This document shows positions 6,183 through 56,180 of a DNA stretch of 64,000 nucleotides, piece by piece (the first letter of the stretch is position 1; every line of letters begins with the position of its first letter). This DNA comes from Geosiphon pyriformis uo1. Its lineage: Eukaryota; Fungi; Glomeromycota. Location of the stretch: assembly GCA_016748015.1 (NCBI GenBank), contig JAAOMT010000523.1, forward strand, positions 1,067,270 through 1,131,269, in the 5' to 3' direction. The notes beneath the pieces were generated by a model that did not search any database, was not told the origin of the DNA, and worked only from the letters and a program-made list of their open reading frames with translations. Position numbers and translations under genes: made by a program.

Positions 6183-6239
6183 TTTTTTTTTGTTGTCTTT
6201 GTTGCATATACCGTGTTTTTTTATACTTTTTTGGTTTGT

Positions 6240-9331: not shown

Positions 9332-9391
9332 TTTTCTGAAGTCTTCTGTCACATTTACCATGTTTTTATATCCTCTTTTTATTGTTCAATT

Positions 9392-10797: not shown

Positions 10798-13700
10798 TTA
10801 GATTTGTTTTATTTATGACAATCTGTTGGCATTTCCATTGTCTTTTTTCTTTTTATAATATACTATATAATTGAATAGTGAAAGTTCTATTTTCTATCTA
10901 ATATGGCAATTGTCTCTAAATTCTTGCTTCTGGATTGAAATCAATCCTTTGTGATTTATATATATTTCAAACTTTTGGCTCAAGTATTTTTTCCATTTCA
11001 TAACTGTCCAATAGATTGCTAAGTGTTCCAATGCTAGTGTTCCATAGTTTTTTTCAGCTAAACTCAAGCTTTGGCTGGTGTATGCTACTGAATGTTCTCT
11101 TCTATTTGGTTCTTTTTGTGATAGTACTGCTCCCAATGCTTGGCCTGATGCATCAGTAGTGATAATAAATGGTTTGCTGTGATCTGGATACATCAATACT
11201 GAAGCTTAAATAAGCTTTCTTCTCAGTGTGTCAAATGTTTCTTGTTGAGCTTCTGTTCATTCATATTTTACATTCTTAGTTTGTAAATAATAGAATGACT
11301 AGGCCAATTTAGAAAAGTCTTTAATAAAATGACTATAATAGCCTGTAAATCCTAAAAATGTTCTTAGTTCCGTCAAATTGGTTGGTACTGGAAAGTTCTT
11401 TACTATTGCAATCTTATTTGAATCTGTCTTAATACCATCTTTGCTTATAACATGTTCCAAAAATTTGAGTTTTGTTTTTTCAAAGAAACATTTGTTTGCA
11501 TTCAACTTCAATCCTGCTCTTTTCAATCTTTCAAATACTTGTTGAAGATGATGTAGATAATCATTAAATGTCTTGGAGAACACATTTGTGTTGTCTAAGT
11601 AAACAATTACAGATTTCCATAGTAGTCCAGTATAGACAATTTCCATGAGCTATTGGAATGTTGCTGGTGCATTCATCAAGCCAAATGGCATTACTTCAAA
11701 TTCAAAAATTTTTTCTCGCATTGTAAAAGCTGTTTTCTTTTTATCTTCTGGTTTCATGGCTATCTGCCAGTAACCACTGTCTAAGTTTAATGTTGAAAAC
11801 CATTTTTTTTCTCCAAAAGCATCAAACAGCTCTTGAATTTTTGGTGTTGGATAGCTATCTTTTTTGGTTACTCCATTCAACTTCCAGTAATCTACACAAA
11901 AGCAGATTTTCCCATTCTTCTTCCAGACTAGTACTATTGGTAATGACTATGGACTTATTAATGACTGAATTAGTCCATTGTCAAGCATTTAATTAATTTC
12001 TTGACAAATGATCTCATGACTAGTTAGTGGTACTCTGTATGCTCTCTGTTTAATTGGTATTGCATTTCCAGTCTTAATTTAATGTTGAATAATGTCAGTT
12101 TTGCCAAATTTGTTTTTGCTGGCAAAATGTCATTGAAATTGTTGAGTAATATCTTGAGTTGCATATGTTGTAGCGGGTCTAGATTTTCCAAGTTCATCTG
12201 TTCCAATTGTTCTAGTTGAAGTAGATAACATTTTTCTCATCCATAAATTGTTTGTGATGTGATATCTACATATCCACACAGTTGTAGAAAGTCTAGAATG
12301 GTGTTTGGTGAGTGGTTTTCAATTTTGGTGGTTAAGTATCTAATGATAGTTCTTTCTAGTATCTTGATGATATTTCCTATGTTGTTATAAATAGGAATTT
12401 TGATGTGACTGTGGTTTTTGGCTAATATGTATAGATTAACTAATCCAAACTTTTCTGATTCACAAAGTGTTGCTTTTGCCTCAAAAATCTGTACTTGATT
12501 TTTTACTTTTCTGTCTATAACTACTATGTACTGGTCATATGATAGAATGAAAATTGTTTGATGGGTAAAGATAATTTCTTCCTTGTCAATAATTTCTTCC
12601 TCTGCCATATTTAACTGATACATCTATTCTACTTGTTGATCCAAATTTTTGTATTTCTCTAGCCATAATCCCTAATTCTTCTCTGTTTCTTACTGATACT
12701 AATTGAGCTACTTTCACTAGAGACAGAAATATTGTCTGTGCTATCTTTTTATTTGGCTCTATAACATAGGTCTTTTCTGAATTGTTTTGTAGTATTGAAA
12801 TGATATTTCCCACATATTCTGCATCAATTATTCCTCCTCTGATGTTGATTCCTTTTTTCACTAGACTACTCCTAGATGCCAGTTAAACTATTGTTGTTGC
12901 TGGGATTTCTAATGCTATTTTGAGATCAATGCATGTGTGCAAATGTGGTTCCAATTTGATGATATCTTTTTTTGGATATCTTAGATCAAATCTGGTATTA
13001 GTATCATGTACATATTCTGGCATAATACCTTCATTGTTATTGCTGAACCATTTAAGTTTCTGCTTCTTAGAGAGATCAGAAAGTGTGATGTATGTTTCGG
13101 AATTTGAATCAGAGTCTGAATTATCATAATTTTTATTACTATTTTGAATGGAGCTGGAACTGTTATTTTTATTGTTATTGTTGTCAGAGTTTGAATCGGG
13201 ATTAAAAGTTGATTCTAATTCTGATGCGCAGCTGCTGATTGGTTTCTCCTTTTCTGGGATTGTGTAGATCATGCAGATTGGTGGATTGTAAATGAGATCA
13301 CATTTATTACAATATTGAAAGTTATATGAAATTAAACAATGGTCACATAGTTTTGTATTTATTTCTTCCAACTATTGCTCTTATTCCTCTCTAGTAGGTG
13401 CTAATTCCTGGTAGTATTTATGAAATTGTTCTGGATTCAATAGATTTATGACTGGTTCTGGGTTCCAGTCAAGTTCTATAAGTTTTGGTGAATTGTTTTT
13501 TATTATTTTTATTTCTTCTGGTGATGCTTCTTTGATTTTGGCAAGAGCCATTTGCCAAATTTTGTCATCATCATATGGACATCCATCCAAGTATTTGATG
13601 GCTTGTCTTTAGGCAGCATCTATGGGCATTCTTTTTCTAATCCAGTTACTTATGAGAATTGTGTACTAACACGATTTGTCACATGTTCCTCTTTGTCCAG

Positions 13701-15937: not shown

Positions 15938-16713
15938 TGTTACGAGTAGAATTTTAGCTATTTATTAGCATGAAATTACTCTTATAATTACTATTATTAA
16001 TTAGCATATATTATTATTATTTTGATTATCACTTATTATTTAATCAAATTATTAAATATTATTACTCAATCAATAATCCGATTTGTACTCTAGAAATTAA
16101 GATGATCAAATTACACAATACTCTGAACCATTTAATATAGTCAAAATTCGCCGAAATTAATGAAAATTTGTCGAAATAATCAATAGTTCAATAAAATAAC
16201 TTGTAAATTCACCAAAATGTATCTTTAGTTTACCCAAATTCTAGCAAAAAGAAAAGTGCAAGTTCAAAGACTAGTATTACAACAAGTTGTATAAAAGAAG
16301 AGCTTTTCTCTTCAAGAAAATGTATCTTTTCATAGTATTTTAACATAGTATCTTACTTTAGATATCTTAATTAAAACAAATCACCTTTTATACATTCAAA
16401 TAAAAATTAAATATTCGAAAAACAAATTCTTAAAATTATTGCACTTGAAATTCTCTCAACACAATTAACATTTTGAAATTAATTAGCTACCAATTTCAAT
16501 AATCTGTTAGTGACTTCAGGCCTGAATAGAAAACGTTTTTCTTGATAAAATTCTATTTCTTTTACATTTCTTTTATTTTTCTTTTCTTTTCTTATTATAA
16601 TCATTAGGGTAGCTTACAGATGAAATTCCTGTAGAAGAGTTGACTTTCACAGCAAAGTAACTACACATTTTAGTGAGCTTCTAGATAAGTAATTCCTGGA
16701 AAAGAGTTGACAT
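15938..16713 (+). repeat. C 5' LTR, left part (interrupted by D)
   Basis: Aligns to 34541-35316; TATA-like GTATAAAA at ~16289. Confidence 0.93.
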
Positions 16714-17697
16714 TGTTACCAGACAAAATTAAAAATATTGTTTAGCATAGAATTACCCTTATAAATTTTATCATTAATTAACATATATTATTGTTTCAAA
16801 TTATTACTTATTACATTAGCAAAATATCCGAAATTATCATTTAATTAATAACCCAATTTGTACATAACACAAATGTAACCTAATTGTAATGATCAATCAT
16901 GTAATACCCCGAACTATGTAACATTCAAAAAGTTTGTCAAAATTTGTAAGAAATTTGTCAAAATAATTGATAGTTCGCCAAAATATCTAATAGTTTGCAG
17001 AAATAACTTGTAGTTCGCCAAAATGTATCTTTAATTCAATGAAATTATAGAAAATAGCAAAGTTCAAGTTCATAGAATAGTGTTATGACAAGTTGTATAA
17101 AAGAAGAGCTTCTCTTTTCAAGGAAATGTATCTTACTTCAGATTTAATAATTAGAATCATCTTTTACATACAAAAACAAAATAAATATCAAATAATTCGA
17201 AAAATCAAATCCTTAATTATTTCCCTTGAAATTAACCAAACCCTACTAACAGTTGAAATTGATTAGCTACCAATTTCAGTAGACTGTTAAAGCATTTTCA
17301 GGTCTGGATCCAAAACGACTTCCATAAATTATCAGTTTTACTTTTTCTTTTACATTCCCTTTATTTTCTTTCTTTTCTTATTATAAATCATTTGAGTATC
17401 CTGCAGACAAAAATTTCTGTAGAAAAGTTGACTTTCACAGCAAAATAACTACACATTTTAGTGAGCTTCCAGACAAGCAATTTCTGGGAAAGAGTTGACA
17501 GTTACTACAATGTAACTATACAAAGTAACTGGCATGGAATTGGCCATTCCACTTATAAGCCCAGCAGTTCAAATTATAGAAGATAATTTGAAGATAAATT
17601 CAGTTATCAGAGGTTCAAACACTTCCCATAATCGTGAATTAACAGTATTACAACAAACATACAAGAGCTAAGAAGAGACCAAAAACCTCTAGTAACA
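16714..17697 (+). repeat. D 5' LTR (984 bp)
   Basis: TGTTACC...AGTAACA; matches 25616 to ~26500. Confidence 0.93.
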
Positions 17698-17699
17698 TT

Positions 17700-17715
17700 T
17701 AGTGCTCTCCCACGG
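17700..17715 (+). promoter_or_regulatory. Primer-binding site T(A/G)GTGCTCTCCCACGG
   Basis: Two nt after the LTR end; the C copy reads TGGTGCTCTTCCACAG. Complementary to a tRNA ending in GAGCA-CCA. Confidence 0.8.
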
Positions 17716-17741
17716 AAACAACACAGCAAAACAACTTCAAA

Positions 17742-20700
17742 GTGGCGACCATACCAGATGCAACAACTCTAGAGTATTACCAATCAATTTACACCCACTG
17801 CAAGCAAAGATTCAACATTCCAGACGGAATTGAAGTTTTCAAGAAATCAGTATACCAATACATTAAAAACCGCATCAAAAATTATCTTTTTGGAAATTAC
17901 AATATCTCAGAAATTAGAAGCAACTTTTACAATAATTTAGCACACTATTCACAGTTGAGAACTGAAGACTTTAACAGTGAAACACTTGCCATTTACTTTC
18001 AAGAACTTAACTTTAACATTATCAAGTACTGTAAATAAACATATCCAGTGCAGTCTCAATACTCTATTGATTTTGAATTGGAGACAAAAACAAGCAACAA
18101 AAGCAAACAAAAATTGAAGCAATACTCAAAAACCACCCCAAATACCCCAATACTACCAAAAACAACTGCCAAACACTTACAAACACTTGAACAAGGAACC
18201 AGTTCAAAACTTCCACTCACCATCACACTTTTTCCAGCTTCACTTGCACAAGCACAAACACCTAATTCATTCTTGAATCAATTTGCAAGACTAAAAGATT
18301 TTACATCACTCAGAAGTCCCGCCAGACAACAAGAACCTCTTCAAACTAGTTCCAATCTTCTTGACTTCTAGCTGAAAATTGAAGTGAACACTCTGAGACA
18401 GCAGCAAACAAAGAAAATGACTTTGAAATATCTGAAAAAGAATCAATAGACAGTGAAAATAAAAAAGATGAAATGACAGCATACATCACAAAAATCTCTG
18501 AATTCAATGGAAAAGATATTGAGACCAGTTCCCAAGAATGGCTCAACCAAGTTACTAAAACTGGAGATGCAAATAGATGGAATGCTACCAAAATGTTAAG
18601 AACAATTCTCTACTTTCTCAAAGGAACAGCAGATGAATGGTTTGAAAACTTGACCACCCCTTTTAATGACTGGACAGCTTTCAAAACTGCCTTCTTAGAA
18701 CAATTCACTGATAACAACACTTCAATCACACTTCAAAATCATTTTCGCAATATCAAACAAGAACCCTCTGAATCTGTCATGACTTATATTGGGAAATTTA
18801 ACAAACTTCTCAGATGAATTCACCAACTTGAAACTAATGATTATTATTTCAATGCTCAAATCTTGGATTAATTTATTACTGGTTTAAAGGATAAACTGAT
18901 TAAAAAGATTTGCCTACATGCCCCAGAAGATTTAAACACTGCCATACAGCATGTGAAAAGATACGAAATGGCCATGGAAGAGACCAATTACACAAAACTT
19001 GTAAATTTGGCAATTGGAGAAACCAGCTCAGTAGCTGAGGAGAAAATTGACCAACTGACAAAGAAGGTTGAAAACTATTTCACCAATCAACAACAACAGC
19101 AACCCCAAAGATATCAACCACTCCAAAGACAAAATCAAAATAACTTTGCACTACTTTCTAATAACCAGCCTCAGAATTGCCATTACTGTGGAATCTCTGG
19201 CCACTGGAAAAAAGATTGCAGAAAGCTACAGTGAGACCAACAAAATAGGAGTAATCAATGTTACCCTCCACCACAGCAATCTTATTATCAACCACCACCA
19301 GCTTACTATTCACCAAGACCCCAATACCAAAGTAACTATTATCAGCCTGCCTCACAGCTGATCCAACAGCAATACCAACAACCATCCACACAATATTACC
19401 AAGTATCTGCTCGAAGATTGACTCCACAAAACCAATTCATACCACAAAACTGATACCAAGTAAACAACAATAGAATCAGTTTGAACAACCAATTGGTTCT
19501 CCGAAATTCTGCTCAACCAAGACCCAACTACTATCACACTCAACCCAGTTATTTAACAATACCTAAAGAACAGAATTTTCACCATACTGTACTCTCGGAA
19601 GGTAGAGCTACAGCACAACAACAAAACCCTTCCTATACTCCTATCACAATCCCACCAGCCAGAATTGCTGAAAATGCCAATCTTTCAGATATATTTCCTT
19701 TTGAGTTTGAAGCAAATGAGTTACCATTTCTGTTTAGTAATGCAGCTGTCAATAAACAAAAAGCAATCATGGCTATGTACACTGAAGCAGAAGTCGAAGG
19801 AAAGGCAATTTGCTTGATCCTAGATAGTGAATCTGCTGGAAGCATTATCACCTACCAGTTAATGCAACAGTTAAAAAAAAATGTTGACCGACCAGCTCAA
19901 ACAGTAATTGTTACTGCCGATGGCATAAAAAAGACTCCAGTAGAAGAAATTGACAATTTTTCATTCACTTTTAATGGAATCACCATTTCAGTCAAAGTTC
20001 TTGTAATAGATGCATCCCAGTATTAAGCCCTTTTTGAAAATGATTGGCTCCAAACAACCAATGCAAAATTAGACTGGGAAACCCAAGAACTACAAATCTC
20101 TTACCAAAGACAACATGCCCGAGTACCTGCCACTTGTAGTACATTTAACAAATGCTCTGAAAAAGCCCCAGCTTTTGAATTTGAACCAGAAGAAGAAAAA
20201 CCAATAATCAAAACATTCATGGCTCTTGGATCAATGTCCAATTGGGCCAATGAAACTGAACAAGAACATTTTACACCACACTCTGAACTCAAAACCCCTG
20301 GATGGAATATCCCATACTCAAAGTCTGAACTAAGGAAACAACACTCCTACATTCCTCTTAAATGTAAGGACTGCCACAAAAAACTATCATCAATGAGAGC
20401 CTGCATTTTACCTGAAGAAGAATATGAAAATCATACTTGTTATTACTACAAGACTTGTCACAGAAAACAATGGGGCCATTTAATAAAAAGAAGCGGAAAA
20501 TGGGATAACACCTCTTGTTTGACTTGTGGAGATATGCTACCAGAAGAATGCAATTAGATTGATGTAGCAATGAGAGAAAAAGTCTGCAATCAGATCTGCC
20601 AATATGCTTTATCAATTTCAAAAAAAGTAAAAAGAAGAACACTCTTTAATGCAGCATACAACAGTGCTCTCAACAAACTTTATCACTACCTCCATGATGC

Positions 20701-23346
20701 TGAGATAATTTTCGACCTAGCAATAGCATTAATTAATAGAGCTACCAAAGAAAATGTTCATCAAATAAAGGAAGCAGAATACATTGAATACACTATGGAA
20801 TTAGCTGGATTCGATTATGAAGATGAAGTAGAAGTCTACCACCAAATTGCAAGTTACACCTACCCAACCCAAGAAGCTCAAATTCAATGATTAGAGCAAA
20901 TGAACATTAGGCTATGTGAAGAATGCATTATGCTTTGTGATGAACAGTAGTGTCTTAAATGCTATGCTCTTAAAATCCCCTTGCCTAGTAAAAGTAATGA
21001 AAACGAAATTGAATTTGAAAAACCTGAAGCAATGGAAAAAATTGAAACAACACCCATCTATCTTATCAAAAATCAGCCTGCCTTACAACTCAAATACTTC
21101 AACAACAATAAACAAGGAATAAAACCTGAAAAAGCACATAAAATTGATGCTGAATATGACCTAAGATATCCAGACAAGCATACTTTTGTTCTCAAACCCA
21201 AATTTCTCACAAAAATCAATCTTAAAATTGCACTCGAAATCCCACCAGGAGCAATGGTTCAAATCACCTTCCAGTCCTCTCTGGCAAGCAAAGGAATCAA
21301 TATCAGAGGAGGAATAATCGATGCTGGATATACTGGAGACATTACAGTGATGCTTTAAAATGAAACTGACAAACCATTCAAAATTGAACATGCTGAAAAA
21401 ATTGCCCAAGCTATTTACCTACCCCTAATCAACATTTTGGGTTTGCAACTAGTCAATCAAAGAAAACAATTAGGAAAAAGCAATAGAGGAACCCAAGATT
21501 TTGGTTCAACTAGACGATTTACAGTTCCAGTTAATATAACTCTTAATACACAGAATGAATCCCACCAGATTTTCAGACTTCCACAACCAATTACTATCTC
21601 ACTCTTTGGAGAACATCCAGAAATCTACACCTGCCCAAAGCCAACAACCACACAACAAATTTTGGAGTCCAATAAACAAGTCTGCTTGGAACATAATATT
21701 TTGATTCCAAACATTTATATTCCAGAAGGAACAAAGAAAGTCCAAGTTACTTTTTACAATCCCAATAATTACCTCATAGTTTTATTAAATAATTTAGAAA
21801 TTGGAGTTATTCATAGTAATATATTTCAACAAGAATTACCCCAAACAGTCCCCAATTTTTCAGAAATCATTGGACATTCATTACCAAAAATCAACCCAAA
21901 CCCTAGCTCTAAAAACTACCATGTTGTCATAGAAAAACTATCTCAAATCAACATGGGACAACTTGAATCACAACAACAAAACCAGTTCAAAAAGCTAATT
22001 GCAGAATTTGCTGATATCTTTGCTAAAAACAACAATAACTTAAGAAGAACCAATTTGGTCCAACACCAAATTTATACAGGAGATGCCAAACAAAGAAAAC
22101 AACAAACATATCAAGTTGCTCCAGAAAGTCACCAGTTCATCTGAGAAGAAGTACAACAAATGCTTAACAATGGACTCATCCAAGTCCTTGGGCTTCACCT
22201 GTAGTGCTAGTTAAAAAGAAAAATAGAAAGATACAATTTTGTGTTAACTATTGACAACTCAACAGTATTACAATTGGAGATGCCTACCCCCTTTTCCGAA
22301 TTGATGACATGTTAGATGCCCTTGGAAAATCCAAATACTTTTCAACACTAGATTTGGAAAGCGGTTACTGGCAAGTTGCTATGGATTCTAAAGATCACCC
22401 CAAAACAGCATTCACCACTCAAGGCGGAAATTACGAGTTCAATGTAATGCCTTTTGGATTATGCAATACACCAGCAATGTTTCAGAGATTAATGAATGTT
22501 GTGTACCAAGGACTCCTTTGGAAGTCAGTAGTCATTTATCTTGACGATACTGATGTTTATTCTCCATCGTTTGAATTACACTTAAAACACCTGCAAAAAG
22601 TTTTTCAACAATTACGAAAAACAGGACTAAAACTCAACATTGAAAAATACTACTTTGGAAAAACAAGCTTGGCTTTTCTTGGTCATATCATTAGTAAAGA
22701 TGGAATCAAACCAGACTTTGGAAAAATCAGCACTGTTAAAAACTTCAAAACTCCTCAAAACACTACAGAACTAAAAGAATTCATAGGGTTAGCCTCCTAT
22801 TATCGGAAATTTATCAAAGGATTCTCAGAAATCACAAAACCTCTCAACCAGCTTACCACCAAAAATGTTAAATACGAATGAACTGCTGAATGCCAAAATG
22901 CATTTGAAATCCTCAAAGAAAAACTAACGACAGCTCCAATTTTTGCCTACCCAGATTTCAGCAACTGATTCCGATTAGCAACAGATGCCTCTTATACTGC
23001 CTTTGGTACTATCCTATCACAATTAGATGACAATGGAAATAAGCAAGTAATTGCCTATGCTAGCAGAACATTAAAACCAGCTGAGAAAAATTATCCTGCC
23101 ACTGAATTGGAAACAGCAGCTGTAATTTGGGCCTTACATTATTTCAACTTTTATCTTCAGCCAAAGGAATTCGATATTATTACTGATAATATTGGACTCA
23201 AATGGCTTTAGAACAAAAATACTCAGCTAAACGCAAAACAAACCTGATGGACAGGATTTCTAGCAAACTATCAATACATAATACATTATAAACCAGGAAA
23301 ACTCCACACCAATGTTGACTGTCTCTCCAGAATGAGACAAAATTAG
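17742..23346 (+). pseudogene. D ORF1: N-terminal extension, capsid, CCHC, protease, Cys-rich region, dUTPase, RT, RNase H (fused gag-pol ending after RNase H)
   Basis: Fragments 18473-22144 are all in one frame. CHYCGISGHWKKDC; ILDSESAGS; GGIIDAGYTG; IYLDD; ATDAS. Ends SRMRQN-TAG at 23344-23346. Confidence 0.93.
21115..21515 (+). pseudogene. dut: dUTPase domain of D (trimeric type, motifs 1-5)
   Basis: DAEYDLRY, QSSLASKG, GGIIDAGYTG, EKIAQ, RGTQDFGST. Confidence 0.92.
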
Positions 23347-23395
23347 AAAAAAAAAACCAACACTTAACTTAACCAACCAAAACAGCCAACAAAAA

Positions 23396-24781
23396 ATGAA
23401 TTTGGAAAACTACAACAATCTTAAACAATATTTGAAAACATTAACAATCCCAACAGATTGGTCTCCAGATGAAAAACATCGATTACAACAACAAGCCAAA
23501 CAATATTTTCTACACAACAATATTATTTATCAGCAAAATTTCAAAAACCCAAACAAACCACTCAGATTAATACAAGAACAGGAAAAAGAGACTATATTAT
23601 ACAACATGTACTTAGATTCTTCATCAGCACACTTTGGAAAAAACAGCACCACTTAAAGAACACTAGAATACTACTTTTGGTCTCGAATGAGAAAAAACAT
23701 TCATGAATATGTCAAATCTTGTGATAGTTGTCAAAGAAGAGGAGAAACACGCCCTACTGAACCATTAAACCCAATTAAAGTTGGACAGCCTTTTGACAGA
23801 GTTGGTATCAATTTAGTCGGACCACTACCTATCACAAACCAAAGAAACCGTTATATTGTAGTAGCTGTAGACTATCTCACCAAATGGCCTGAAGCCAGAG
23901 CCATTCAATGAGCAGATGCAAAATCAATAGCAAACTTCATTTATAAAGACATTATTTGTAGACATAGATGCCCAATAGAACTTTTATCTAATCAAGGAAC
24001 ACATTTCATGAACAATTTAATCCAAAAAATTTGTGGACAATTTAATGTCAAGAGACTATTATTTTCACCCTACCATCCACAAACCAATAGATTTATAGAA
24101 TGTTTCAACAGAACATTGTGTAAATCATTAGCCAAAGTTTCAACCAATTTTGAGCAAAAATGAGATTTCTTTATTCCATCAGTATTATTAGCATATAGGA
24201 CACTAAAACAAGATACCACAAAACACACACCATTTGATTTAACTTACAGAAGGACGGCAATGTTACCAATTAGTTTTACAGTGGAAACATACCCAGCACA
24301 ACCAATCGATGAAAACAATTTCCAAGAAATGCTTCAGCAAAGAGTCTACACTCTGTTTAGCACATTGGAAGGAAAATGACGAATAGCAACCATCCATATT
24401 GAACACTCTCAAGCTCAACAAAAAGAATGGCATAATGACAAATTGCCTCCAGTCACCAATGAATATAAAATTGGAAACAAAGTTCTCTTACACAGAACTA
24501 AAGCTGAAAAACAATGGAGTGGAAAATTTGAGAATAAATGGGATAGACCATTCTTTATCTATGAAGTTTTAGACAACGGATCATACAAGCTAAGACTTGA
24601 TGACAAAATCCTAGCAAAAGTTGTACATGGAGATCATTTGAAACACTATAATTCCAGAAACAATCTTGAACCATTAATTCTACAAATTGGTACACATTCT
24701 CCTTTAATCAATCCCAAAGACATTCCCCGAAACTTAGAACCAATAGTTGTCATTGAACAACTCCCCAACTTGAACACTTAA
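23396..24781 (+). pseudogene. D integrase, separate ORF
   Basis: Own ATG at 23396; AHFG...CDSCQ, GINLVGPL, KWDRPF...GSYKL. No chromodomain. Confidence 0.92.
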
Positions 24782-24927
24782 TTTCAATTTTATTATAGTT
24801 ATTCCCTTATAATTTAAAAACATATCACAACAAAAACAAAACAAAGCACGCTGAAAAAACAAAAATAACATAAAAACTCACATACCAAAAATAATTTTAT
24901 TTTTATTTTTTTTCTAATTTCATTATA

Positions 24928-25647
24928 ATGACTATCCCTCAAAATATTCAACAGTTATCTCAAAAATTAATGTTAGCTTTAAAAACAATACCCGAATTAT
25001 CCATTACTATCACTAGAAAACATATTAATTATACCCAAACAGAAATAGTTACAAATCTAGCCCCAAATTCACGAAAGTATCATCCTTATAGGAAAAACAC
25101 AAAAAGTTATTCTGGAATTCATTTACCAGAACTTTTGAAGCTTGCTTTAAGAGAAAACTTATTGCTCACCCTTATTAATATTTCACTAAATGCTACTATT
25201 CAACAAAAACTTTAACTGTGTCTTAATGAAGAAAATGGCAAATACCTCCCAATATATAGATATTTTTATATTGGAAAAACACTTCATGAGCAAAAACTAG
25301 AGCTTACATCAGCAAACCTCACAAAAAAAGCTATTTGGAAACAACTCTACAACAAATTCAAGACGACAGCTGGACCTACAAACAGTCATTATAAACTAAG
25401 AGCTGCTCTTAGACTTTATGACCTATTCTACACCTGTGAAAACGTCCTGTAAAACCCAATTTTACAGCCTTTGAAGATTCAATACATTGGAAAGCTCACA
25501 GAACTGAAATTTCAACAATTTTCAGACCAAATTTCTTCAATAATTTTGGATTACTATCTGGAAATTACAAACAGTACTTGGACTTTGACAAAGCTCAGTT
25601 TTGAGGAGGAGATTATGTTACCAGACAAAATTAAAGATATTGTTTAG
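24928..25647 (+). pseudogene. D ORF3, accessory protein (~239 aa, two CAA>TAA stops), reading through the PPT into the 3' LTR
   Basis: One frame: MTIPQNIQQL...RYFYIGKTLHE...YKLRAALRLYDLF...IQYIGKLTELKFQQF...EEEIMLPDKIKDIV*. Confidence 0.85.
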
Positions 25648-26598
25648 CATGGAATTATCCTTATAAATCTTATCATTAATTAACATATATTATCATTTCA
25701 AATTATTCCTTATTACATTAGCAAAATATCCAAAATTATCATTTAATTAATAACCCAATTTGTACATAACACAAATGTAATCTAATTGCGATGATCAATC
25801 ATGCAATACCCCGAACTATGTAACATTCAAAAAGTTCGCCAAAATTTGTAAGAAATTTGCCGAAATAATTGATAGTTTGCCAAAATATCTAATAGTTCAC
25901 AGAAATAACTTGTAATTCACCAAAATGTATCTTTAGTTCAGCAAAATTATAGAAAATAGCAAAGTTCAAGTTCATAGAATAGTGTTACGACAAGTTGTAT
26001 AAAAAAAGAGCTTCTCTCTTCGAGGAAATGTATTTTACTTCAGATTTAATAATTAGAATTATTCTTTACATACAAAAACAAAATAAATATCAAATAATTC
26101 GAAAAATCAAATTCTTAATTATTTCCCTTGAAATTAACCAAACCCTACTAACAGTTAAAATTGATTAGCTACCAATTTCAGTAGACTGTTAAAGCACTTC
26201 CAGGCCTGGATCCAAAATGACTTCCATAAATCATCAGTTTTACTTTTTTTTACATTCCCTTTATTTTCTTTCTTTTCTTATTATAAATCATTTGGGTATT
26301 TTACAGACAAGAATTCCTGTAGAAGAGTTGACTTTCACAGCAAAGTAACTACACATTTTTAATGAGCTTCCAGATGAGCAATTCCTGGGAAAGAGTTGAC
26401 GTTTACTACAACGTAACTATACAAAGTAACTGGCATGGAATTGGCCATTCTACTTATAAGCCCAGCAATTCAAATTATAGGAGATAATTTGAAGATAAAT
26501 TCAGTTATTGGAGGTCCAACTACTTCCTGGAAACGTGAATTCACAGCAAATCAACATTAACAAAATTCAAGAAAAGTGACCAAAAACCTCTGGTAACA
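25616..26598 (+). repeat. Chimeric LTR (D-type left part, C-type right end) shared by D and C
   Basis: Left ~800 bp match the D 5' LTR; the last ~90 bp match the C 3' LTR end rather than the D end; followed directly by a PBS. Confidence 0.88.
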
Positions 26599-26643
26599 TT
26601 TGGTGCTCTTCCACAGAAATAACACAGCAACAACAAATTCAAA

Positions 26644-29600
26644 GTGGTGACCACACCAGACACAGCAACTCTAGAGTATTATCAGTCAATTTACACCCAC
26701 TGCAAGCAAAGATTCAACATTCCAGACGGAATTGAAGTTGTCAAGAAATCAGTATACCAACACATTGAAAACCGCATCAACAATTATCTTTTTGGAAATT
26801 ACAATATCTCAGAAGTTAGAAACAACCTTTACAATAATTTAGCACACTATTTACAGTTGGAACTGAAGACCTTAACAGTGAAATACTTGCTACTTACTTT
26901 TAAGAACTTAATTTTAACATTATCAAGTACTGTAAAGAAACATATCCAGTGCAGTCTCAATACTCCATTGATTTTGAATTAGAAACAGAAACAAGCAACA
27001 AAGACAAACAAAAAGTGAAACAATATTTAAAAACCACACCAAATACTCCAATACTACCAAAAACAATTGTCAAATACTTGCAAACATCTGAACAAAGAAC
27101 CAGTATCAAATTATCACTTTCTATTACATCATTTCCAATTTCACTTGTTTAACCACAAACACCAAGTTCACCACTTAACCATTTCTCCAAATCAGAAGAT
27201 TTTCAGTCACCTAGAAATCCTATTCAACAGCAGGAACCAATATCAACCAGCACCAATATTATTGAGTATTTACAGGAAATCAAAAGTAATCCTTCAGAAA
27301 ACTTGAAAAGTGAAAAAACTGAATCAAAACAAGAAAAAACTATAGAAAACAAAGAAGAAATGGCAACTGCTTACATTGCAAAGATTCCAGAGTTTACTGG
27401 TGAAAATAATGATACCAGTCCTCAAGAATGACTTGATAAAGTCCAAAAAGCAGGAGATGTAAATGGTTGGAATGCAACAAGAATGCTCAAGGCAATTCCA
27501 TACTTTCTCCAAAGAACTGCAGGAGAATGGTTTGAAAACTTAGAACTATTTAAAAACTGGCAAGTATTTAAAGATGCTTTTTTACAACAATTCACTGACA
27601 ATAATACCTCTATCACTTTCCACAATCACTTTTGCAACATCAAACAAGAAACATCTGAAACTGTCATGACCTATCTTGAAAGATTCAACAAACTCCTTCG
27701 ATGAATTTGACAATTAGAAACCAATGACTACTATTCTGATGCCCAGATTTTGGATTAGTTTATAGCAGAATTAAAAAACAAACTCATTAAGAAAGTCTTT
27801 CCACATGCACCAGCAGACTTAGCAACTGCCATTAGACATGCAAAAAACTATGAAATGGCAATAAAAGAAGCAAACCACACCAAACTTGTCAACCTAGCTA
27901 TTGAAGAAACCAGTTCAGCAGCTGAAAAAAAGATAGACCAACTTACAAAAAAGGTTGAAAACTATTTTACCAACCAACAACAACAGCAGCAGCAACCACA
28001 AAGATATCAACCACCACAACGACAAAACCAAAACAACTTTAGATTACTATCCAACAACCAATCTCAAAATTGTCATTATTGTAGAATTTTAAAACACTGA
28101 AAACGAGATTGCAGGAAATTGCAAAGAGACCAACAAAATAAGAGTAATCAACATTATTCTTCACCACAACAATCTTATTATCAACCTCCACCACCAACTT
28201 ATTATTTACCAAGACCACAAAATCAAAACAATTACTATCAACCAGCTCCACAACCAATGCAGCAACAGTATTAGCAACCTTTACCAATTCAGCAATATTA
28301 GACACCACCCACTCAACAATATCAAGTGCCAGCCAGAAGATTGGTTCAACATAACCAATTCACACTCCAAAATCAATTTCAGAATAACAATAACAGAATC
28401 AACCCAAATAATCAGTTGGTTCTCCGAAATTCTGGTCAACAAAGACCCAATCACTATCACACTCAACCCAGTTATCTTATAATGCCTAAAGGATCGAATT
28501 TTCAACAACCTGCACTTTCTAAAGGTGAAGTTGCAGCACCAAAGTCAAATCCTTTCAACAATACCATTTCACCAGCTCAAATTGCTGTAAATATCAATCT
28601 CTCAAATATATTTCTATTTGAATTTGAAGCAAATGAATCATCATCCTTGCTTAGTAATGCAGCAGCTAATAAACAAAAAGCTATTACTGCCATGTACATT
28701 GAAGCTACAATAGAAAAAAAGCCCATCCGATTAATCCTAAACAGTGGATCAGCTGGAAGTATTATCACCTACCAGTTAATGCAACAGCTTCAAAAAACTG
28801 TTGACAGACCAGCCCAAACTGTAATTGTTACAGCAGATGGTATGAAAAAGACACCAGTAGGAGAAATTGACAATTTCCTATTTATCATTGATGGAATTAC
28901 CATTCCAGTTAAAGTTCTAGTCATGGATGCACCCCAATATCAAGTCCTGGTCAGAAATAATTGGCTTCTTAAGGCCAATGCAAACTTGGACTGGGAAACT
29001 CAGAAACTAAAAATCTTATACCAAGAACAATATACTATAGTACCTGCTACTTGTAGTACTTTTAACAAATGATCAGAAAAAGTCCCAGTATTTGAATTTG
29101 AAGAGGAGAAAGAAATGCCACTTACTGAAACCTATATGGCCCTTGGATCAACATCTAATTGGGCTGAGAAAACAGAACAAAAAATTTTTGAAGAATCAAA
29201 AGGATAAAAGAAAGTTAGATATTCTACACCAGAACCATGGAAACAACCACTCTATATTCCACTCAAATGTAAAGATTGCAACAAGAAACTTTCATCAATG
29301 GGAGCATCCATTTCTCCAGAAGAGAAATATGAAACTTGTATCTGCTACTTTTGTAAAGCATGCCATAGAGAATGATTTGGATATTCCAAAAGAAATGAAA
29401 AATGAGACAAAACATCTTGCCTCACATGTAGAAATATACTACCAAAAAAATGCAACTGGATTGATGTTGCAATGAGAAGAGGAGTATGTGATCAAACCTG
29501 TTAATATGCTCTATCAATTTCGGAAAAAGTCAGAAGAGAAACATCATTTGATGCAGTATATAATAGTGCTCTCAATAAACTTTACCACTACCCTCATGAT

Positions 29601-32248
29601 GCTGAAATGATTTTTGACTTAGCAATGGCATTAATCAATGAAGCCACCCAAGAAAATGTCCATCAAATAAAAAAAGCTGAATACATTAAGTATACCATGG
29701 AGTTAGCTGGATTTGATTATGAAGATGAAATAGAAACATACCACCAAATTGCAAGTTATACATATCCAACCAAAGAAGCTCAAATTCAACAATTAGAGCA
29801 AATGAACATTCAATTGTGTAAAAAATGTGTTATGCCTTGTAATGACCAATGGTGTTTAGAATGCTATGCTCTTAGCATTCCCTTGCCAGATGAGAATGAT
29901 GAAAATAAAATAAAATTTGGAGTATCTGAACTAGTAGAAGAATTACCAATCACTCTCATCTATCTTCTTGAAAATTAACCACCTCTACAACTTAAATATT
30001 TCGACAACCATGGCCAAGGAATCATACCAGAAAAAGCACATGAAATTGATGCTGGGTATGACTTAAGATACCTTGATTCTCCAACCAAAGTTCTTGACAA
30101 AAATCAACCTCAAAATTGCTCTTGAAATTTCACCTGGAGCAATGATTTAAATTGCATCCAGATTATTATTGGCAAGCAAAGGAATCAATATTAGAGGAGG
30201 AGTTATAGATGCAGGATATATTGAAGACATTATCATCATGTTACAGAATAAAACAAACAAACCATTCAGAATTGAACATGCTGAGAAAATTGCCCAAGCA
30301 ATTTACTTATCCTTAATCAACATTTCAGGTTTACAATCAGTGAAAAACAGAGAACAATTGGAAAAAAGTGAAAGAAGAACTCAAGGTTTTGGTTCAACTG
30401 GACGATTTACAGTGCCAGTAAACATAGCTTTCAATACACAAAATGAATCTCACCAGATTCTTCAACTTCCCCAACCAATTACCATTTCATCTTTTGAAGA
30501 ATATTACGAAATTTACACCTGCTCAAAACCCACCACTACCCAACAAATCTTTGAATCCAATGAACAAATCTGTTTAAAGCATGAAATCTCAATCCCAAAC
30601 GTTTATATTCCTAAAGGAATGAAAAAATTTCGAGTTATATTCTACAACCCCAACAATTACCCTATTGTCCTATTAAATAAACTAGAAATTGGAATTATAC
30701 ACAGCAATATTTTCCAAGATAAAAACCCTCAAATTGTCTCTAATTTCATCGAAATTATAAGACATACATTACTTCCAAATCCAAACATCACCCCTACTAC
30801 TGAAAACTACCATCTGTTGGAAGAAAAACTCTCTAGAATCAACATGAATCCCTTAGAACCCCAACAACAAAGACAATTAAAACAATTGATAGCTGAATTT
30901 GCAAATATATTTGCAAAAGACAACAATGACCTGGGAAAAACGGATATTGTCCAATATCAGATCCACACAGGAGATGCTCCACCAAAAAGACAACAAGCTT
31001 ATTGAGTGCCACCTGCCAACCACTAATTCATCAGAGAAGAGATCCAAAGAATGCTCAATAACGAATTAATCCAACCATCAAGAAGTCCATGGGCCTCACC
31101 AGTAGTTTTAATTAAAAAGAAAAACGGAAAAATCAGATTCTGTGTTGATTATAGACAACTGAATAGTATTACAATTGGAGATGCCTACCCTCTTCCAAGA
31201 ATTAATGATATGTTAAATGCTTTAGGAAAAACCAAGTTCTTCTCAACTTTAGACTTGGAAAGTAGATATTGGCAAGTCGAAATGGACCCAAAAGATCGAC
31301 CCAAAACAGCATTTACCACTCAAGAAGGAAACTATAAGTTCAATGTTATGTCTTTTGGACTCTGCAATGCACCAGCAACATTCCAGTAACTTATGAATGT
31401 TGTATATGAAGGGCTCTTGTGGCAATCAGTAGTTGTTTATCTTGATGACACTAATGTGTACTCACCAAGCTTTGAAGCCCATCTTATTTACCTGCAAGAA
31501 GTTTTTCAACAATTATGGAAAGCAGAATTGAAATTAAACATTGAGAAATATCACTTTGGAAAAACAAGTTTAATCTTTCTTGGACATATTGTTAGCAAAA
31601 ATAGAGTCAAACCAAATCCTGAAACAATCAGTGCTGTCAAAAACTTTCAAACTTCCAAAAATACCACAGAGCTATGAGGATTTGTAGGATTAGCCTCCTA
31701 CTATCGAAAATTCATCAAAAAATTCTCAGAAATTGCCAAACCACTTAATTATCTCACCAACAAAAATGTGTCTTACAAATGGACAGAAGAACAACAAAAA
31801 GCTTTTGAAACCCTCAAAACAAGACTGACAACAGCCCCAGTTCTTGCTTATCCAGACTTCAACAAATGGTTTCAACTAGCCACTGATGTTTCACACATAG
31901 TATTTGGTGCCATCTTATCACAATTGGATGAAAATGGCCAAGAACAAGTCATTGCTTATGCTAGTAGAATACTCAAATCAACAGAACTCAAATATGGCTC
32001 AACTGAATTAGAAGCTGCTGTAGTCATTTGGGCTCTTAAACCCTTTCAACAATACTTAGAATGAAAAAGAATTTGACATCATAACTGACAATATTGGTTT
32101 CAAATGGCTTAATAAAAAGAAAACTGAATAAAGTGCCAAACAGTCTCGATGAAATGACTTCTTAGCAGACTACAAATATATTGTATACCACAAACCAGAA
32201 AAACTACACACCAATATTGATAGTCTCTCAAGAATGAGACAAGATTAA
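26644..32248 (+). pseudogene. C ORF1: N-terminal extension, capsid, CCHC, protease, Cys-rich region, dUTPase (~30015-30405), RT, RNase H
   Basis: LILNSGSAGS; GGVIDAGY and RRTQGFGSTG; VYLDD; ATDVS. Ends SRMRQD-TAA at 32246-32248. Confidence 0.93.
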
Positions 32249-32306
32249 ACACCAACAACAAATCCAACACAACTCACCAACTTATCAACACAATAACCAA
32301 ATAACA

Positions 32307-33692
32307 ATAGATTTCAGAAATTACAACAATCTTAAAAACTATTTGGAGACTTTTACTATACCAGAAAATTGGTCTCCAAGTAAAAAACATCGATTACAAC
32401 ACCAATTTAAACAATATTTCATACACCACAACAAAATCTATTACAAAAATTGTAGAAATCCAAACCAATCACTCAGATTAGTACAGGAAAATGAAAAAAA
32501 AACAATCCTATACAACATGTACACAGATCCATCTTCAGCACACTTGGGAAGAGATAAAACAATCCAAAGAACTCTTGAACATTATTTTTGGCCTCAAATG
32601 CAAAAAGACATTTGACAATATATAGAATCTTGTGATAGTTGTCAAAGAAGAAAAGAAACTCACCCCACAGAACTTTTAAATCCAATTAAAGTTGGACAAC
32701 TTTTTGACAGAGTTGGAATTGATTTAGTCGAACCATTACCTATCACAACCCAAGGAAATTGCTATATTGCAGTAGCAGTAGATTATTTCACCAAATGGCC
32801 TGAAGCTAGAGCCATCCAAAGAGCAGATGCAAAATCAGTAGCAAATTTCATCTATAAAGACATTATCTGTAGACATGGATGCCAAATTGAACTTTTATCT
32901 GATCAAGAAACACATTTTGTAAACAACTTGATACAAAAAATTTGTGAACAATTCAATGTCAAAAGACCTCTATCATCACCTTATCACTCTTAAACAAATG
33001 GATTTGTAGAACGTTTCAACAGAACATTGTGTGAATCTCTAGCCAAAGTCTTAACAAATTTTGAGCAGGAATGGGATATTTTTATTTTATTAGTGTTACT
33101 AGCATACAGAACACTAAAACAAGATACCACAAAACACACATCATTTGATCTTACTTATGGAAGGACAGCAACATTACCAATTAATTTCACAGTGGAAACA
33201 TACCCTGTGCAACCAATTAATAAAGAAAACTTTCAAGAAACACTCCAAAGAAAAGTCTACACTCTTTTTAATACACTGGAAAGAAAAAGAAAGATAGCAG
33301 CAACTCATATTGAACATTCCCAAGTTCAACAAAAAGAAAGACATGACAACAAATTACCACTCATAACCAACAAATTTAAAATTGGAAATAAAGTTCTTTT
33401 ACACAGAACTAAGGCCAAAAAACAATGGAGTGGAAAATTTGAAAACAAATGGAATGGACCATTTTATATTCACGAAATTCTAGGCAATGGATCATACAAG
33501 TTAAGACTTGGTAACAAAGTACTAACAAAAATTGCACATAGAGATAGATTGAAACACTATCATTCCAGAAATAATCTTGAACCATTAATTCCACAAATTG
33601 GTACACATTCCCCTTTAATTAAACCTGAAGATATTCCCCGAAATTTAGAACCAATAATTATAATAGAACAACAGCCAAACTTGAACACTTAA
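32307..33692 (+). pseudogene. C integrase, separate ORF
   Basis: Starts at ATA (position of D's ATG) 58 nt after the RNase H stop; HHCC, DDE and WNGPFY motifs. Confidence 0.9.
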
Positions 33693-33852
33693 TTTAACAT
33701 AATTTTACAATAATCTTTTTAATATAAATACACAAAGAAAAAATAATAAATAATTACAAAAACACACAAACCCAAAAACAAATAAAACCCCATATCCAAA
33801 AATAATTTTCTTTATTCTTTTCAAACTTTGTTATTAATTAGTCATTTTTATC

Positions 33853-34560
33853 ATGATTATTCCCCGAAATATTCAACAAATATCCCAAAAATTAATGTTA
33901 GCTTTGAAAACACTTCCTGGTTTGTCTATAACGATTAATAAAAGTCAAATTAATTACATTTAGAAAGAAACCACAGCCCCAATAGTAAATAATTCTCAAA
34001 ACTATCACTCTTATAAAAGAAAAACAAGAGGTCACTCTGAAAATAGGTTACCAGAACTCTTAAAGCAAGCACTAAAAGAAAACCTCTTAATTGCCCCTAT
34101 TGACATTTCACCAAATGCCACAATGCAACAAAAACTTTTACTATTTCTCAATGAACAGAACAATGAACATACCCTTATATATAGATATTTTCATATTGGA
34201 AAAACACTTTATGGACGAAAACTAGAACTTGAAGCAACCAATATCACTCCTAAGAATATATAAAAACAAATTCACAATGAATTCAAGACAGCAGCTGGAC
34301 CAATAAATACTCATTATAAACTTAGAGCAGCATTTAGACTCTATGATTTATTCAACACTTGTGAAAACGTCCTACAAAATCCAATACTCCATCCAATGAA
34401 GATTCAATACATTGGAAAGCTCACAGAACTGAAATTTCAACAATTTTCAGACCAAATTACTTCAATTATCTTGAACTATTATCTTAACATCACAGATAGT
34501 GCTTGGATTTTGATGGAGCTCAGTCTTAAGGAGAAGATTATGTTACCAGTAGAATTTTAG
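33853..34560 (+). pseudogene. C ORF3, accessory protein (~235 aa), overlapping the PPT and 3' LTR
   Basis: MIIPRNIQQISQKLMLALK...RYFHIGKTLY...YKLRAAFRLYDLF...IMLPVEF*; no frameshift relative to D ORF3. Confidence 0.85.
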
Positions 34561-35512
34561 CTATTAATTAGCATGAAATTACCCTTATAATTCCTATTAT
34601 TAATTAGCATATATCATTATCATTTCGATTATCCCTTATTATTTAATCAAATTATCAAATATCATTACTCAATCAATAATCCGATTTGTACTCTAGAAAT
34701 TAAAATGATCAAATTACACAATACCCTGAACCATTTAACATAGTCAAAATTCGTCGAAATTAATGAAAATTTGCTGAAATAATCAATAGTTCAATGAAAT
34801 AACTTGTAAATTTGCCGAAATGTATCTTTAGTTCACCCAAATTTTAGCAAAAAGAAAAGTGCAAGTTTAAAGACTAGTACTATAACAAGTTGTATAAAAG
34901 AAGAGCTTCTCTCTTCAAGAAAATGTATCTTCTCATAGTATTTTAACATAGTATCTTACTTTAGATATCTTAATTGAAACAAATCACCTTTTATACATTC
35001 AAATAAAAATTAAATATTCAAAAAACAAATCCTTAAAATTATTGCACTTGAAATTCCTTCAACACAACTAACGTTTTGAAATTGATTAGCTACCAATTTC
35101 AATAATCTGTTAGTGACTCCAGGCTTGGATAGAAAACGTTTCCCTTGATAAAATTCTATTTCTTTTACATTTCTTTTATTTTTCTTTTCTTTTCTTATCA
35201 TAATCATTAGGGTAGCCTACAGACGAGATTCCTGAAGAAGAGTTGATTTTCACAGCAAAGTAACTACACATTTTAGTGAGCTTCCAGATGAGCAATTCTT
35301 GGAAAAAAGTTGACGTTTACTACAACATAACTACATAAAGTAACTGGCAAGGAATTGGCCATTCCACTTATAAGCCCAGCAGTTCAAATTATAGGAGATA
35401 ATTTGAAGATAAATTCAGTTATTGGAGGTCCAACTACTTCCTAGAAACGTAAATTCACAGCAAATCAACATTAACAAAATTCAAGAAAAGAGACCAAAAA
35501 CCTCCAGTAACA
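34541..35512 (+). repeat. C 3' LTR (972 bp)
   Basis: TGTTACC...AGTAACA followed by TSD ATAG. Confidence 0.95.
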
Positions 35513-37355: not shown

Positions 37356-39420
37356 ACATCAAACTTCTGACTCAAGTATTTTTTCTATTTCAAGACTGCC
37401 CAATAGATTGCTAAGTGTTTTAGCACTGGAGTTCCATAGTTCTTTTCAGCTGGACTTAAGCTTCTGCTGGCATAAGCTACTGGGTGTTCTCGTCCATCCA
37501 GTCTTTTCTGCAATAGTACAGCTCTTAATACTTGACCAGATGCATTAATAGTAATGATGAATGGTTTGCTGTAATCTGGATAAATTAATATTGGGGCTTG
37601 AATAAATTTTCTTCTTAGTGTGTCAAAAGCTTTTTGTTAAATTTCAGTCCATTTGTATTTAGTGTTTTTTGTTTGAAGTTTGTGTAATAGTTAAGTTATT
37701 TTGGAAAAGTCTTTGATAAAACAGTAATAGTATTCAGCAAATTCCAAGAATGCTCTTAATTTTGTGAGATTCTTTAGTACTAGAAAGTTCTTAACAATTT
37801 CAATCTTATCTGGATTTGTTTTGATACTGTTTTTGTTCACATCATGTTCCAGAAACTTGAGTTCAGTTTTTTCAAAGAAACACTTGGTTGCATTTAGTTT
37901 TAATTCAACTTTTCTTAGTCTTTCAAATACTTGTTAAAGATGGTACAAATGATCATCAAATGTTTTGAAAAACACATTGGTGTTGTCCAAATATATGACT
38001 ACTTATTTCTATTGCAGTTCAGTATAGACAATTTTCATAAGCCATTAAAATGTGACTGGAGTATTTATTAAGCTGAATGGCATAAACTTAAATTCAAAAT
38101 TTCTTTCTTGAGTTGTAAATGCCATTTTCTCCTTATCTTCTGGTTTCATGACTATTTGCCAGTAACCACTGTCTAAGTCTAATGTTGAAAACCATTTTTT
38201 TCCTGCAAAAGCATCGAATAGTTTTTAGATTTTTAGAATTAAGTAGTTATCTCCTTTTGTTATTTCATTCAGTTTCCAGTAATCCACACAAAAATGGATT
38301 TTTCTATTCTTTTTACAGACTAGTACCACTGGTAATGACCATGGGCTCATTAATGACTGAATTAGCCCATTGTTAAGCATCCAATTAATTTCTTGATGAA
38401 TAATCTTATGGCTGGCTGGTGGTACTCTGTATGCTTTTTGCTTAATTGGCATTGTATCTCCAGTCTTGATCTGATGCTGGATTATGTTAGTTTTGCCAAA
38501 TTTATTTTTACTGGCAAAGATGTTGTTGAAATTGTTGAGTAACATCTTGAGCTGCATATGTTGTAGTGAGTCTAGATTTTTTAAGTTTATTTGTTCCAAT
38601 TATTCTGGTTGGAGCAAATAACATTCTTCTCATTCATATATTGTTTGTGATGTGATATCCACATATTCACACAGTTGTGGAAAATCTGCAATAGTGTTTG
38701 GTAGCTGGTCCTCAATTTCAGTGATTAAATACCCAATAATAGTTTTTTCTGGTATTTTGATGATGTTTCCTATATTATTGTAAATGGGAATTTTGATTTA
38801 ACTATGGTTTTTTTCTGATATGTGTAGATTAACTAATTCAATCTTTTCTGATTCACAAAGTGTGGCTTCTGCTTCAAAAATCTGAATCTGGTCCTTTACT
38901 TTTTTTTCTATGATTAACATGTACTGGTCATATGATGGAATAGAAATTGATTGATGAGTGGAGATAATTTCTCTCTTGTTAATAACTTCTTCTTTTGCTA
39001 TATTAACTGGTACATTTATTCTACCTGTGGATTCAAAACCCTGTATTCCTCTAGCTATAATTTCTAATTTTTTCCTGTTTCCCATTAATATTAATTGAGC
39101 TATTTTAACCAGAGACAGGAATATTGCTTGTGTTATCTTTTTATTTGGCTCTATAATATAGATCTTTTCTGAATCATTTTATAGCATTGCAATAATATTT
39201 CCCACATATTCTGCATCAATTATTTCTTCTCTGATGTTGATTTCTTTTTTTGCTAAACTACTCCTGGATGCTAGTTGAACTATTGTTGTTGCTGAAATTT
39301 TTAGTGCTACTTTGAAATCAATGCAAATGTATGAATGTGGTTCCAATTTAATGGCATCTTTTCCTGGATATCTCAAATCAAATCCTGCATCAGTATTATG
39401 TGTGTGTTCTGGCATGATAC
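37356..39420 (-). pseudogene. B1 ORF1 middle part: dUTPase, RT, most of RNase H
   Basis: ORF 39179-39415 DAGFDLRY...RSSLAKK...IIDAEYVG; RGIQGFEST; ORF 38225-38599 is the RT N-terminus. Confidence 0.9.
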
Positions 39421-40095
39421 TGTTATGGTTGAAACTTATACTTTTTATTAATTATCACATGTATTAGCCACTGATGTCACATAAATTAGCCACTCTATTT
39501 TTAGAAAGTGATTATTGATCTGATCAATGATCTGACTGTTAACCTGATTATTGACCTGATTATTGACCACTTTTGACAGCTATATAAGTGATGAATCTAT
39601 TAGCTGTAAAAAAGCATGCAAGAATCAAAGAAATAAAGAAATAAAATAACAACTTTCATCTTAATCCTTCTCTTATCACTAATTTCTCTTTCCCTATCTT
39701 TAAGTATCTGAACATCTTAAAGAAAAAAGACTACTTGTTGGCTTTTACCTACCCTTTTCCTGAAACGTGTAATTGCATTTGAAGATTATTAAATAAAACA
39801 TGACTAAAAAGCATATTTGATACTTGATATTGAATTTTAAGAGTGCCAACATAAGACATAGAATTATACCAAGTGTGATCTTTTGTTAACAGTACAGACT
39901 ATCTCTCTACCTTTAAATTCCCTGGTTATCTTTGAAAAGTATAGCAACTGAGATATTTTATGAGACTAATCTCTTATATTGAATCCATACTCATTCAATT
40001 TGCTTTTTGAAGTTGAATTCTCTTTGATTATTTTTATCATCCTACAATTCTGTTCCCCCTTGCTATCTGTTAGCTTGTTACTCCAACCCATAACA
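39421..40095 (+). repeat. E1 5' LTR (675 bp)
   Basis: Matches 46224-46901; TATATAA at ~39581. Confidence 0.94.
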
Positions 40096-45689: not shown

Positions 45690-45730
45690 ATAAATGTACT
45701 ATTTCCAAAACAGAGGTATCTTCAATCAAC

Positions 45731-56139: not shown

Positions 56140-56180
56140 GTCAATTGAAGATACCTCTGTTTTGGGAATAGTGCATTTAT

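Follow-up and report, generated by a model that had tools for sequence, protein, structure and literature searches.

Each of the six complete Ty3/Gypsy retrotransposons of the long terminal repeat (LTR) type within a 64,000-nt stretch of the Geosiphon pyriformis genome (contig JAAOMT010000523.1, positions 1,067,270 to 1,131,269; hereafter the window, whose own numbering is used throughout) carries a third open reading frame (ORF3), in sense orientation and about 210–240 codons long, between the ORF for integrase and the 3′ LTR. ORF3 is an accessory gene that is real, under selection and apparently not described before; the Gypsy architecture to which it belongs, with three ORFs, is unusual, and its product may be a DNA-binding regulator of the element's own transcription. 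An earlier note on this DNA, made from the letters alone, had reported such a frame in every complete element, and it was recovered at the same coordinates in all six.

Position, integrity and copies of ORF3

The window is a nest of decayed elements, the complete ones being designated B1, B2, C, D, E1 and E2, and all six ORF3 copies are broken. In D (24928–25647, plus strand) ORF3 spans 239 codons with two internal stops, its final 10 codons lying within U3; in C (33853–34560, plus) it spans 235 codons, likewise with two internal stops, and runs into U3. ORF3 of B2 (8693–9331, minus; 212 codons, four stops) stops short of the polypurine tract (PPT) and has another ATG in frame 30 nt upstream, and the B1 copy (5553–6182, minus; 209 codons) has 10 stops and an ATA start. 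ORF3 of E1 (45731–46254, plus), a probable distant homologue, carries an internal deletion, and that of E2 (55485–56139, minus) contains two frameshifts. In C, D and E the frame crosses the PPT and continues into U3, and in B it ends before the PPT, as had been described.

Intact natural copies are common among the G. pyriformis protein matches. For C/D these were of 239 aa (23 copies) or 221 aa (26 copies) among the 120 matches listed of 203; 218-aa copies made up 20 of 110 E matches, and 209-aa copies 2 of 83 B matches. All listed protein matches are named G. pyriformis (the best 120 of 203 for C/D, 83 of 83 for B and 111 of 111 for E). At least three further ORF3 families are present among the proteins of this fungus (P0221/P0222, P0238/P0245 and P0241). 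Many of its annotated "hypothetical proteins" are chimeric gene models assembled from transposon pieces.

Purifying selection on ORF3

Selection was estimated by the NG86 method for pairs of related elements. For ORF3, dN/dS was 0.27 between D and C (95% CI 0.18–0.39) and 0.20 between B2 and B1 (0.12–0.34), neither being close to the value of 1 that would have counted against the earlier note, and the ORF3 frame gave the lowest value of the six possible frames. For comparison, integrase gave 0.21 and 0.37 and reverse transcriptase (RT) 0.16. In these two pairs, ORF3 is under purifying selection, as integrase is. The E pair, which is without statistical power, gave 0.74 for ORF3, 0.83 for RT and 0.64 for integrase. 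C and D, which had been described as widely different in DNA, are in fact 77% identical across 10 kb and 75% identical across ORF3, and so count as two subfamilies within a single family.

Integrase as a separate ORF

The usual state of Ty3/Gypsy elements is an integrase fused into the Pol polyprotein. This arrangement was absent from all six window elements and from L001, a near-intact relative on a metagenomic contig (one locus from 597 candidate stretches). L001 shares the layout of the window elements: RT–RNase H is followed by a stop, by integrase as an ORF of its own that one internal stop interrupts, by an ORF3 whose 230 codons are intact, and by the PPT/LTR junction. In all seven, a stop follows RNase H and integrase has its own ATG, which has decayed to ATA in C and E. 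The D integrase ORF, now decayed, occupies 23396–24781 (plus; H2C2, rve and SH3). The spacer between the RNase H stop and integrase is A/C-rich and about 25–70 nt long (D 23344–23396; L001 772–801; also C, E1, E2, B1 and B2). Integrase lies in phase 0 relative to RNase H in B and L001 and in phase +1 in C, D and E; because the phase varies, independent initiation of integrase is favored and a fixed readthrough or frameshift is unlikely. In D and L001, the 250 nt upstream of the integrase ATG contain no TATA box. A Pfam scan of the C-terminal integrase ORFs of C and D found SH3 and no chromodomain, and a hydrophobic tail follows SH3 in all four lineages. The suggestion that ORF3 homologues are tied to split-integrase elements held in every case with a readable context, namely the six window elements and L001.

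Homology among the ORF3 families

Four ordered blocks had been proposed to be shared by all ORF3 families. Between B and C/D this likeness was upheld: hhalign gave a probability of 84% (E 7e-6, 183 columns), and in reciprocal hmmsearch the B and C/D profiles each recovered the other's ORF within the window. By these profile comparisons, B and C/D ORF3 are homologous. Searching 1.84 billion representatives with a combined B and C/D profile returned 115 matches; of the nine looked up, six were G. pyriformis proteins belonging to further families and three were metagenomic proteins.

For E the proposed profile similarity was not borne out. E ORF3 was not recovered by any profile, and its hhalign E-values (0.11–0.16) were no better than those of reversed decoys. 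A link was found through L001, whose ORF3 aligns end to end with an intact E protein with a score of 88 that was not exceeded in 3000 residue shuffles (Gumbel p 3e-5) or in 2000 block shuffles (Gumbel p 9e-5), the BLASTP E-value being 0.002; this pair is the best of 12 E-versus-other pairs, and the tail encoded by the PPT supplies part of the score. When 20 E copies were compared with L001 ORF3, the median score was 66, against 41.5 for reversed sequences, and four other references gave little or no gap. E is also the most distant lineage by integrase (37–45% identity to L001, as against 53–58% for B, C and D). ORF3 identity between lineages is only ~30%, so that ORF3 diverges far faster than integrase. 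E ORF3 is thus quite probably homologous to the others, linked weakly through this one metagenomic relative. Using ESM features of the ORF3 core, a score not calibrated for protein parts, the top leads were two unnamed all-eukaryote clusters (0.94 and 0.93) in which Mucoromycota was the commonest phylum; the ORF3 family may therefore extend beyond the reach of HMMER.

Predicted properties of the ORF3 protein

The maximal 19-residue Kyte–Doolittle mean was 0.27–1.44 in nine intact ORF3 relatives, so that no hydrophobic segment of transmembrane (TM) level was seen, a result of hydropathy only, with no dedicated signal-peptide predictor. Similarity to fusion proteins was likewise absent: in Pfam scans of 31 members the best Env-named row was PRRSV_Env, with E 0.53 in one member, and Foldseek gave none. 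Judged by sequence, ORF3 is not Env or env-like, in agreement with the earlier note. The description of the protein as basic was overstated, with pI values ranging from 5.4 to 9.7 and both metagenomic members acidic; only the linker described below is basic.

A structure model predicts a soluble, mostly helical protein, which fits the helical character proposed earlier. The model places a helix and β-hairpin in the N-terminal part, a basic disordered linker at about residues 37–65, a confident helical core at about residues 85–215 and an acidic, hydrophobic C-terminal tail. No match to ORF3 was obtained in Pfam (31 members), PDB or Foldseek (listed rows from PDB and BFVD), and no already characterized family was matched. 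Weak, sub-threshold leads pointed to helix-turn-helix (HTH) domains of ParB or DUF1016_N type, with a collinear likeness over a "Y-x-IG-x-x-L" helix and the next two helices. We take DUF1016_N to be a ParB-like HTH. The Pfam cut-off for this type was not reached (12.9 bits versus 32.8, in 1 of 31 members). Core helices 108–128, 133–148 and 153–167 would form the HTH. The N-domain of YhcG is described as mainly α-helical (PMC1189080). ORF3 differs from YhcG and from ParB/Spo0J in having no nuclease or ParB CTPase domain, and all scores lie below significance.

Candidate internal promoters and U3 repeats

TATAWAW was present 39–130 nt upstream of the ORF3 start in six of seven elements, D being the exception, against a background of 2–14% of windows. 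In C this TATA box lies 130 nt upstream of ORF3 (33723–33729, plus) and is a candidate internal promoter; in E2 it lies 46 nt upstream (56179–56185, minus), in B2 39 nt (9364–9370, minus) and in B1 43 nt (6219–6225, minus). The candidate internal promoter of E1 (45625–45691, plus) comprises a TATA box at −46 and, at −106, the top-scoring internal match to the U3 motif of E.

Each family's U3 has its own cluster of short repeats just 5′ of the TATA box. In C/D these are TTYRCCRAAAT-like, spaced by ~20–21 nt, and form a cluster at 25836–25947 (plus) before the TATA box at 25998; they are candidate binding sites for the ORF3 protein. B repeats are ATTCCAGG-like and present in seven copies before the TATA box of the B1 5′ LTR (51451–51611, minus); those of E are TTGACCTGAT-like, with a 12-nt period, before the TATA box of the E1 5′ LTR (39513–39571, plus); and the L001 repeat is TTTGCCCT-like. 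The repeat cluster beat 30 of 30 shuffles in three of the eight LTRs tested. When position weight matrices of the family U3 motifs were scanned across the elements, E1 and L001 (the discovery case) had their two best internal matches upstream of ORF3, no more than 320 nt away. Elsewhere the upstream position ranked 4 (E2), 3 (C), 7 (D), 11 (B2) and 7 (B1); the motif is clear in two of seven, and motifs of other families never rank above 5.

A further signal, a GGAGCTCA-type motif with a palindromic core, stands 17–20 nt before the 3′ LTR in all seven elements (25590–25598, 34515–34523, 46197–46205, 55534–55542, 5559–5567 and 8699–8707 in the window, and ~3091 in L001); in D, motif and PPT together occupy 25590–25615 (plus). 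It is read as GAQ in B and as ELS or ELN in C/D, E and L001. Because it is read in different frames, the motif is likely a cis signal at the nucleic-acid level, with a likely role in plus-strand priming, dimerization or protein binding, and it is this signal that would give the ORF3 proteins their common C-terminal letters.

Weighing the function of ORF3

The earlier note had offered as possible functions a nucleic-acid-binding regulator, an anti-silencing factor or a helper of integrase expression or packaging; of these candidates the internal TATA boxes, U3 repeats and weak HTH leads favor the first. By analogy, ORF3 would be a DNA-binding, element-encoded transcriptional regulator working like foamy-virus Tas, a reading to which we give somewhat less than even confidence. 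ORF3 would probably be transcribed from its own internal promoter, as a short mRNA terminating in the 3′ LTR, and its product would bind the family-specific U3 repeats, raising transcription of the element; the linker would serve as a nuclear-localization or DNA-contact arm and the acidic tail would recruit host transcription machinery. In L001 and E, ORF3 would act on its own promoter too, giving a positive feedback loop like that of Tas, and it may also protect the LTR from silencing by the host. Transcriptional activators encoded by the element itself are characteristic of complex retroviruses. It is conceivable, if doubtful, that this lineage independently evolved a complex-retrovirus architecture, with gag-pol, integrase and ORF3 separately started and an internal promoter. 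ORF3 would then be an activator like Tas, based on an HTH of ParB/DUF1016 type that may derive from bacteria, and its recognition helix would evolve together with the U3 repeats of each family.

Several other functions were weighed against a Tas-like regulator. ORF3 might be a partner of integrase that rides with it in the particle and supplies in trans what a chromodomain does for other fungal Gypsy elements, be it DNA or chromatin binding, nuclear import or a target-site function. Its place directly behind a separate integrase ORF in all six elements and L001, the SH3 without a chromodomain in C and D and the hydrophobic tail after SH3 in all four lineages speak for such a role, and the HTH leads fit it equally; we consider it unlikely, since it leaves unexplained the family U3 repeats that recur upstream of ORF3 in L001 and E1 and since ORF3, at ~30% identity, diverges far faster than integrase, at 53–58% between L001 and B, C or D. 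An RNA-binding translational transactivator, like TAV/P6 of caulimoviruses, would allow ribosomes that have translated the long gag-pol ORF to begin again at the ATG of integrase. TAV is required for the downstream ORFs of the polycistronic pregenomic RNA (PMC5902531), and the separate ATG of integrase after a short A/C-rich spacer, its variable phase, the lack of a nearby TATA box in D and L001 and an ESM lead to a T4 RegA-type translational repressor (0.90) would suit a similar activity here. That lead shares only 119 of 256 features, no TAV domain was matched by Pfam in 31 members, and according to the same review no TAV-like activator was known outside Caulimoviridae; this function seems quite unlikely.

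The heavy mutation of these elements by their host bears on a further alternative, a silencing suppressor that acts with no sequence-specific binding to the LTR and might, for example, bind small RNA or a factor of the host's methylation or RNAi machinery. Identity within LTR pairs is 87–93%, with C/T and A/G exchanges accounting for almost every difference; decay is nearly all C-to-T and G-to-A (51 of 52 differences in the D pair, for example), a pattern resembling decay by methylation-driven or repeat-induced point mutation (RIP)-like processes, by which Lys, Asn and stop codons are over-represented in the products. Counter-defense would pay under such pressure, and rapid divergence between families fits conflict, but Pfam and Foldseek gave no match to known suppressors and such a function would not account for the U3-type motif that precedes ORF3 in both L001 and E1, so that a suppressor of this kind is very unlikely. 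Most improbable is a coat-like RNA-wrapping or movement protein aiding spread through coenocytic hyphae. ESM features of the core led to a closterovirus coat family (0.93, 147 of 256 features, on the score not calibrated for protein parts), and the env-like position would fit a function in spread; yet the listed Foldseek rows (PDB and BFVD) held no filamentous RNA-virus coat, none of 31 members matched Closter_coat in Pfam, and the elements already encode a Gag capsid.

Relation to known systems

The Tas gene of foamy viruses is a non-structural gene beside the 3′ LTR, expressed from an internal promoter, whose product activates both the LTR and that promoter (PMC8003144). ORF3 resembles it in position, in its internal TATA box and in a U3 motif common to two lineages. 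It differs in its host, a fungus, in belonging to a Ty3/Gypsy element without env and with a separate integrase ORF, and in that its activity is inferred; neither Pfam, PDB sequences nor Foldseek revealed homology to Tas by sequence or fold. The comparison with lentiviral nef drawn in the earlier note holds for position, but the anatomy is closer to foamy tas/bel.

Conserved extra ORFs between pol and the 3′ LTR are also found in plant Ty3/Gypsy elements (env-like in Athila and Bagy2; Grande with gene23; Retand; RIRE2) and in Boty of Botrytis. Those described as sense are env-like, some with TM segments, and non-env ones are antisense (PMC7264820), the Grande gene23 product being nuclear and its gene having its own promoter; what such ORFs do in LTR retrotransposons is called unknown there. 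In contrast, ORF3 is sense, soluble, overlaps PPT and U3, matches no family in Pfam and lies behind a split integrase. LTR retrotransposons of bdelloid rotifers share a dUTPase in pol and a sense, non-env ORF3, but their ORF3s (GDSL, DEDDy, coiled coil) are enzymes or TM/coiled-coil proteins (PMC5408684), whereas the fungal ORF3 has no enzyme match and, where checked, has a TATA box and no obvious acceptor beside its ATG. Caulimovirus TAV/P6 likewise serves a reverse-transcribing element as an accessory gene, and translation of the downstream ORFs there depends on reinitiation (PMC5902531); the fungal elements also have separate ORFs, and TAV/P6 has no sequence match to ORF3.

Neither ORF3 nor a split-integrase fungal Gypsy element was described in the literature searched, a search that left most subscription papers, Repbase and GyDB outside. 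A figure legend in PMC2864245 mentions an additional ORF of unknown function, and the element table in its supplement may bear on the novelty of ORF3. New here are integrase as a separate ORF, the TATA box upstream of ORF3, the family-specific U3 repeats and the predicted helical core with weak HTH leads.

Element architecture of the window

The elements show TG...CA LTR ends, a primer-binding site (PBS), a PPT and short target-site duplications (TSDs), together with the domain order Gag–protease–RT–RNase H–integrase, as in Ty3/Gypsy elements (Metaviridae). B1 (51682–4699, minus) contains E1 and B2, B2 contains the block of C and D, and E2 stands apart. The 4-bp TSD is exact for B2 and for the C and D block; in E1 and B1 its copies differ by one or two transitions. 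In that block (15938–35512), flanked as a whole by its TSD, D is inserted ~777 nt into the C 5′ LTR.

D has its 5′ LTR at 16714–17697 (plus), a decayed gag-pol at 18383–23346 (plus; Gag, CCHC knuckle, protease, dUTPase, RT and RNase H, with the stop directly after RNase H) and its 3′ LTR at 25616–26598 (plus), whose tail doubles as the end of the C 5′ LTR and is followed by the C PBS; this LTR is chimeric, with a D-type U3 and a C-type tail. The C 3′ LTR is at 34541–35512 (plus). In C/D LTRs a direct repeat of ~30 nt occurs in two copies ~67 nt apart, 3′ of the TATA box (26280–26403 and matching LTRs). The D dUTPase lies between protease and RT (20951–21500, Pfam), and in C/D a Cys-rich region without a Pfam match (~20027–20950) comes before it; similar sequence occurs in C and B elements, the window positions of dUTPase or similar sequence being 20951–21500, 30151–30400, 12237–13371 and 38798–39178. 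A partial, more decayed B-type element occupies the start of the window (1–3350), and a short B-like fragment lies at 62656–62895. A 134-codon open frame outside the mapped elements (51887–52291, minus) has no Pfam match and may belong to another transposon.

Significance

Hundreds of G. pyriformis "hypothetical proteins" (203, 83 and 111 matches for the three types) are copies of the transposon gene ORF3 and not fungal genes. LTR sequence makes up 41.2% of the genome (PMC11952901). If ORF3 is self-activating or anti-silencing, it would bear on how LTR bursts arise, and the lineage offers a direct test, with several families that each have an intact natural ORF3 and their own U3 repeat. Should the complex-retrovirus-like architecture hold, each family would possess a switch of its own that amplifies itself and overcomes silencing by the host, which would help explain the LTR burst of the Archaeosporales.
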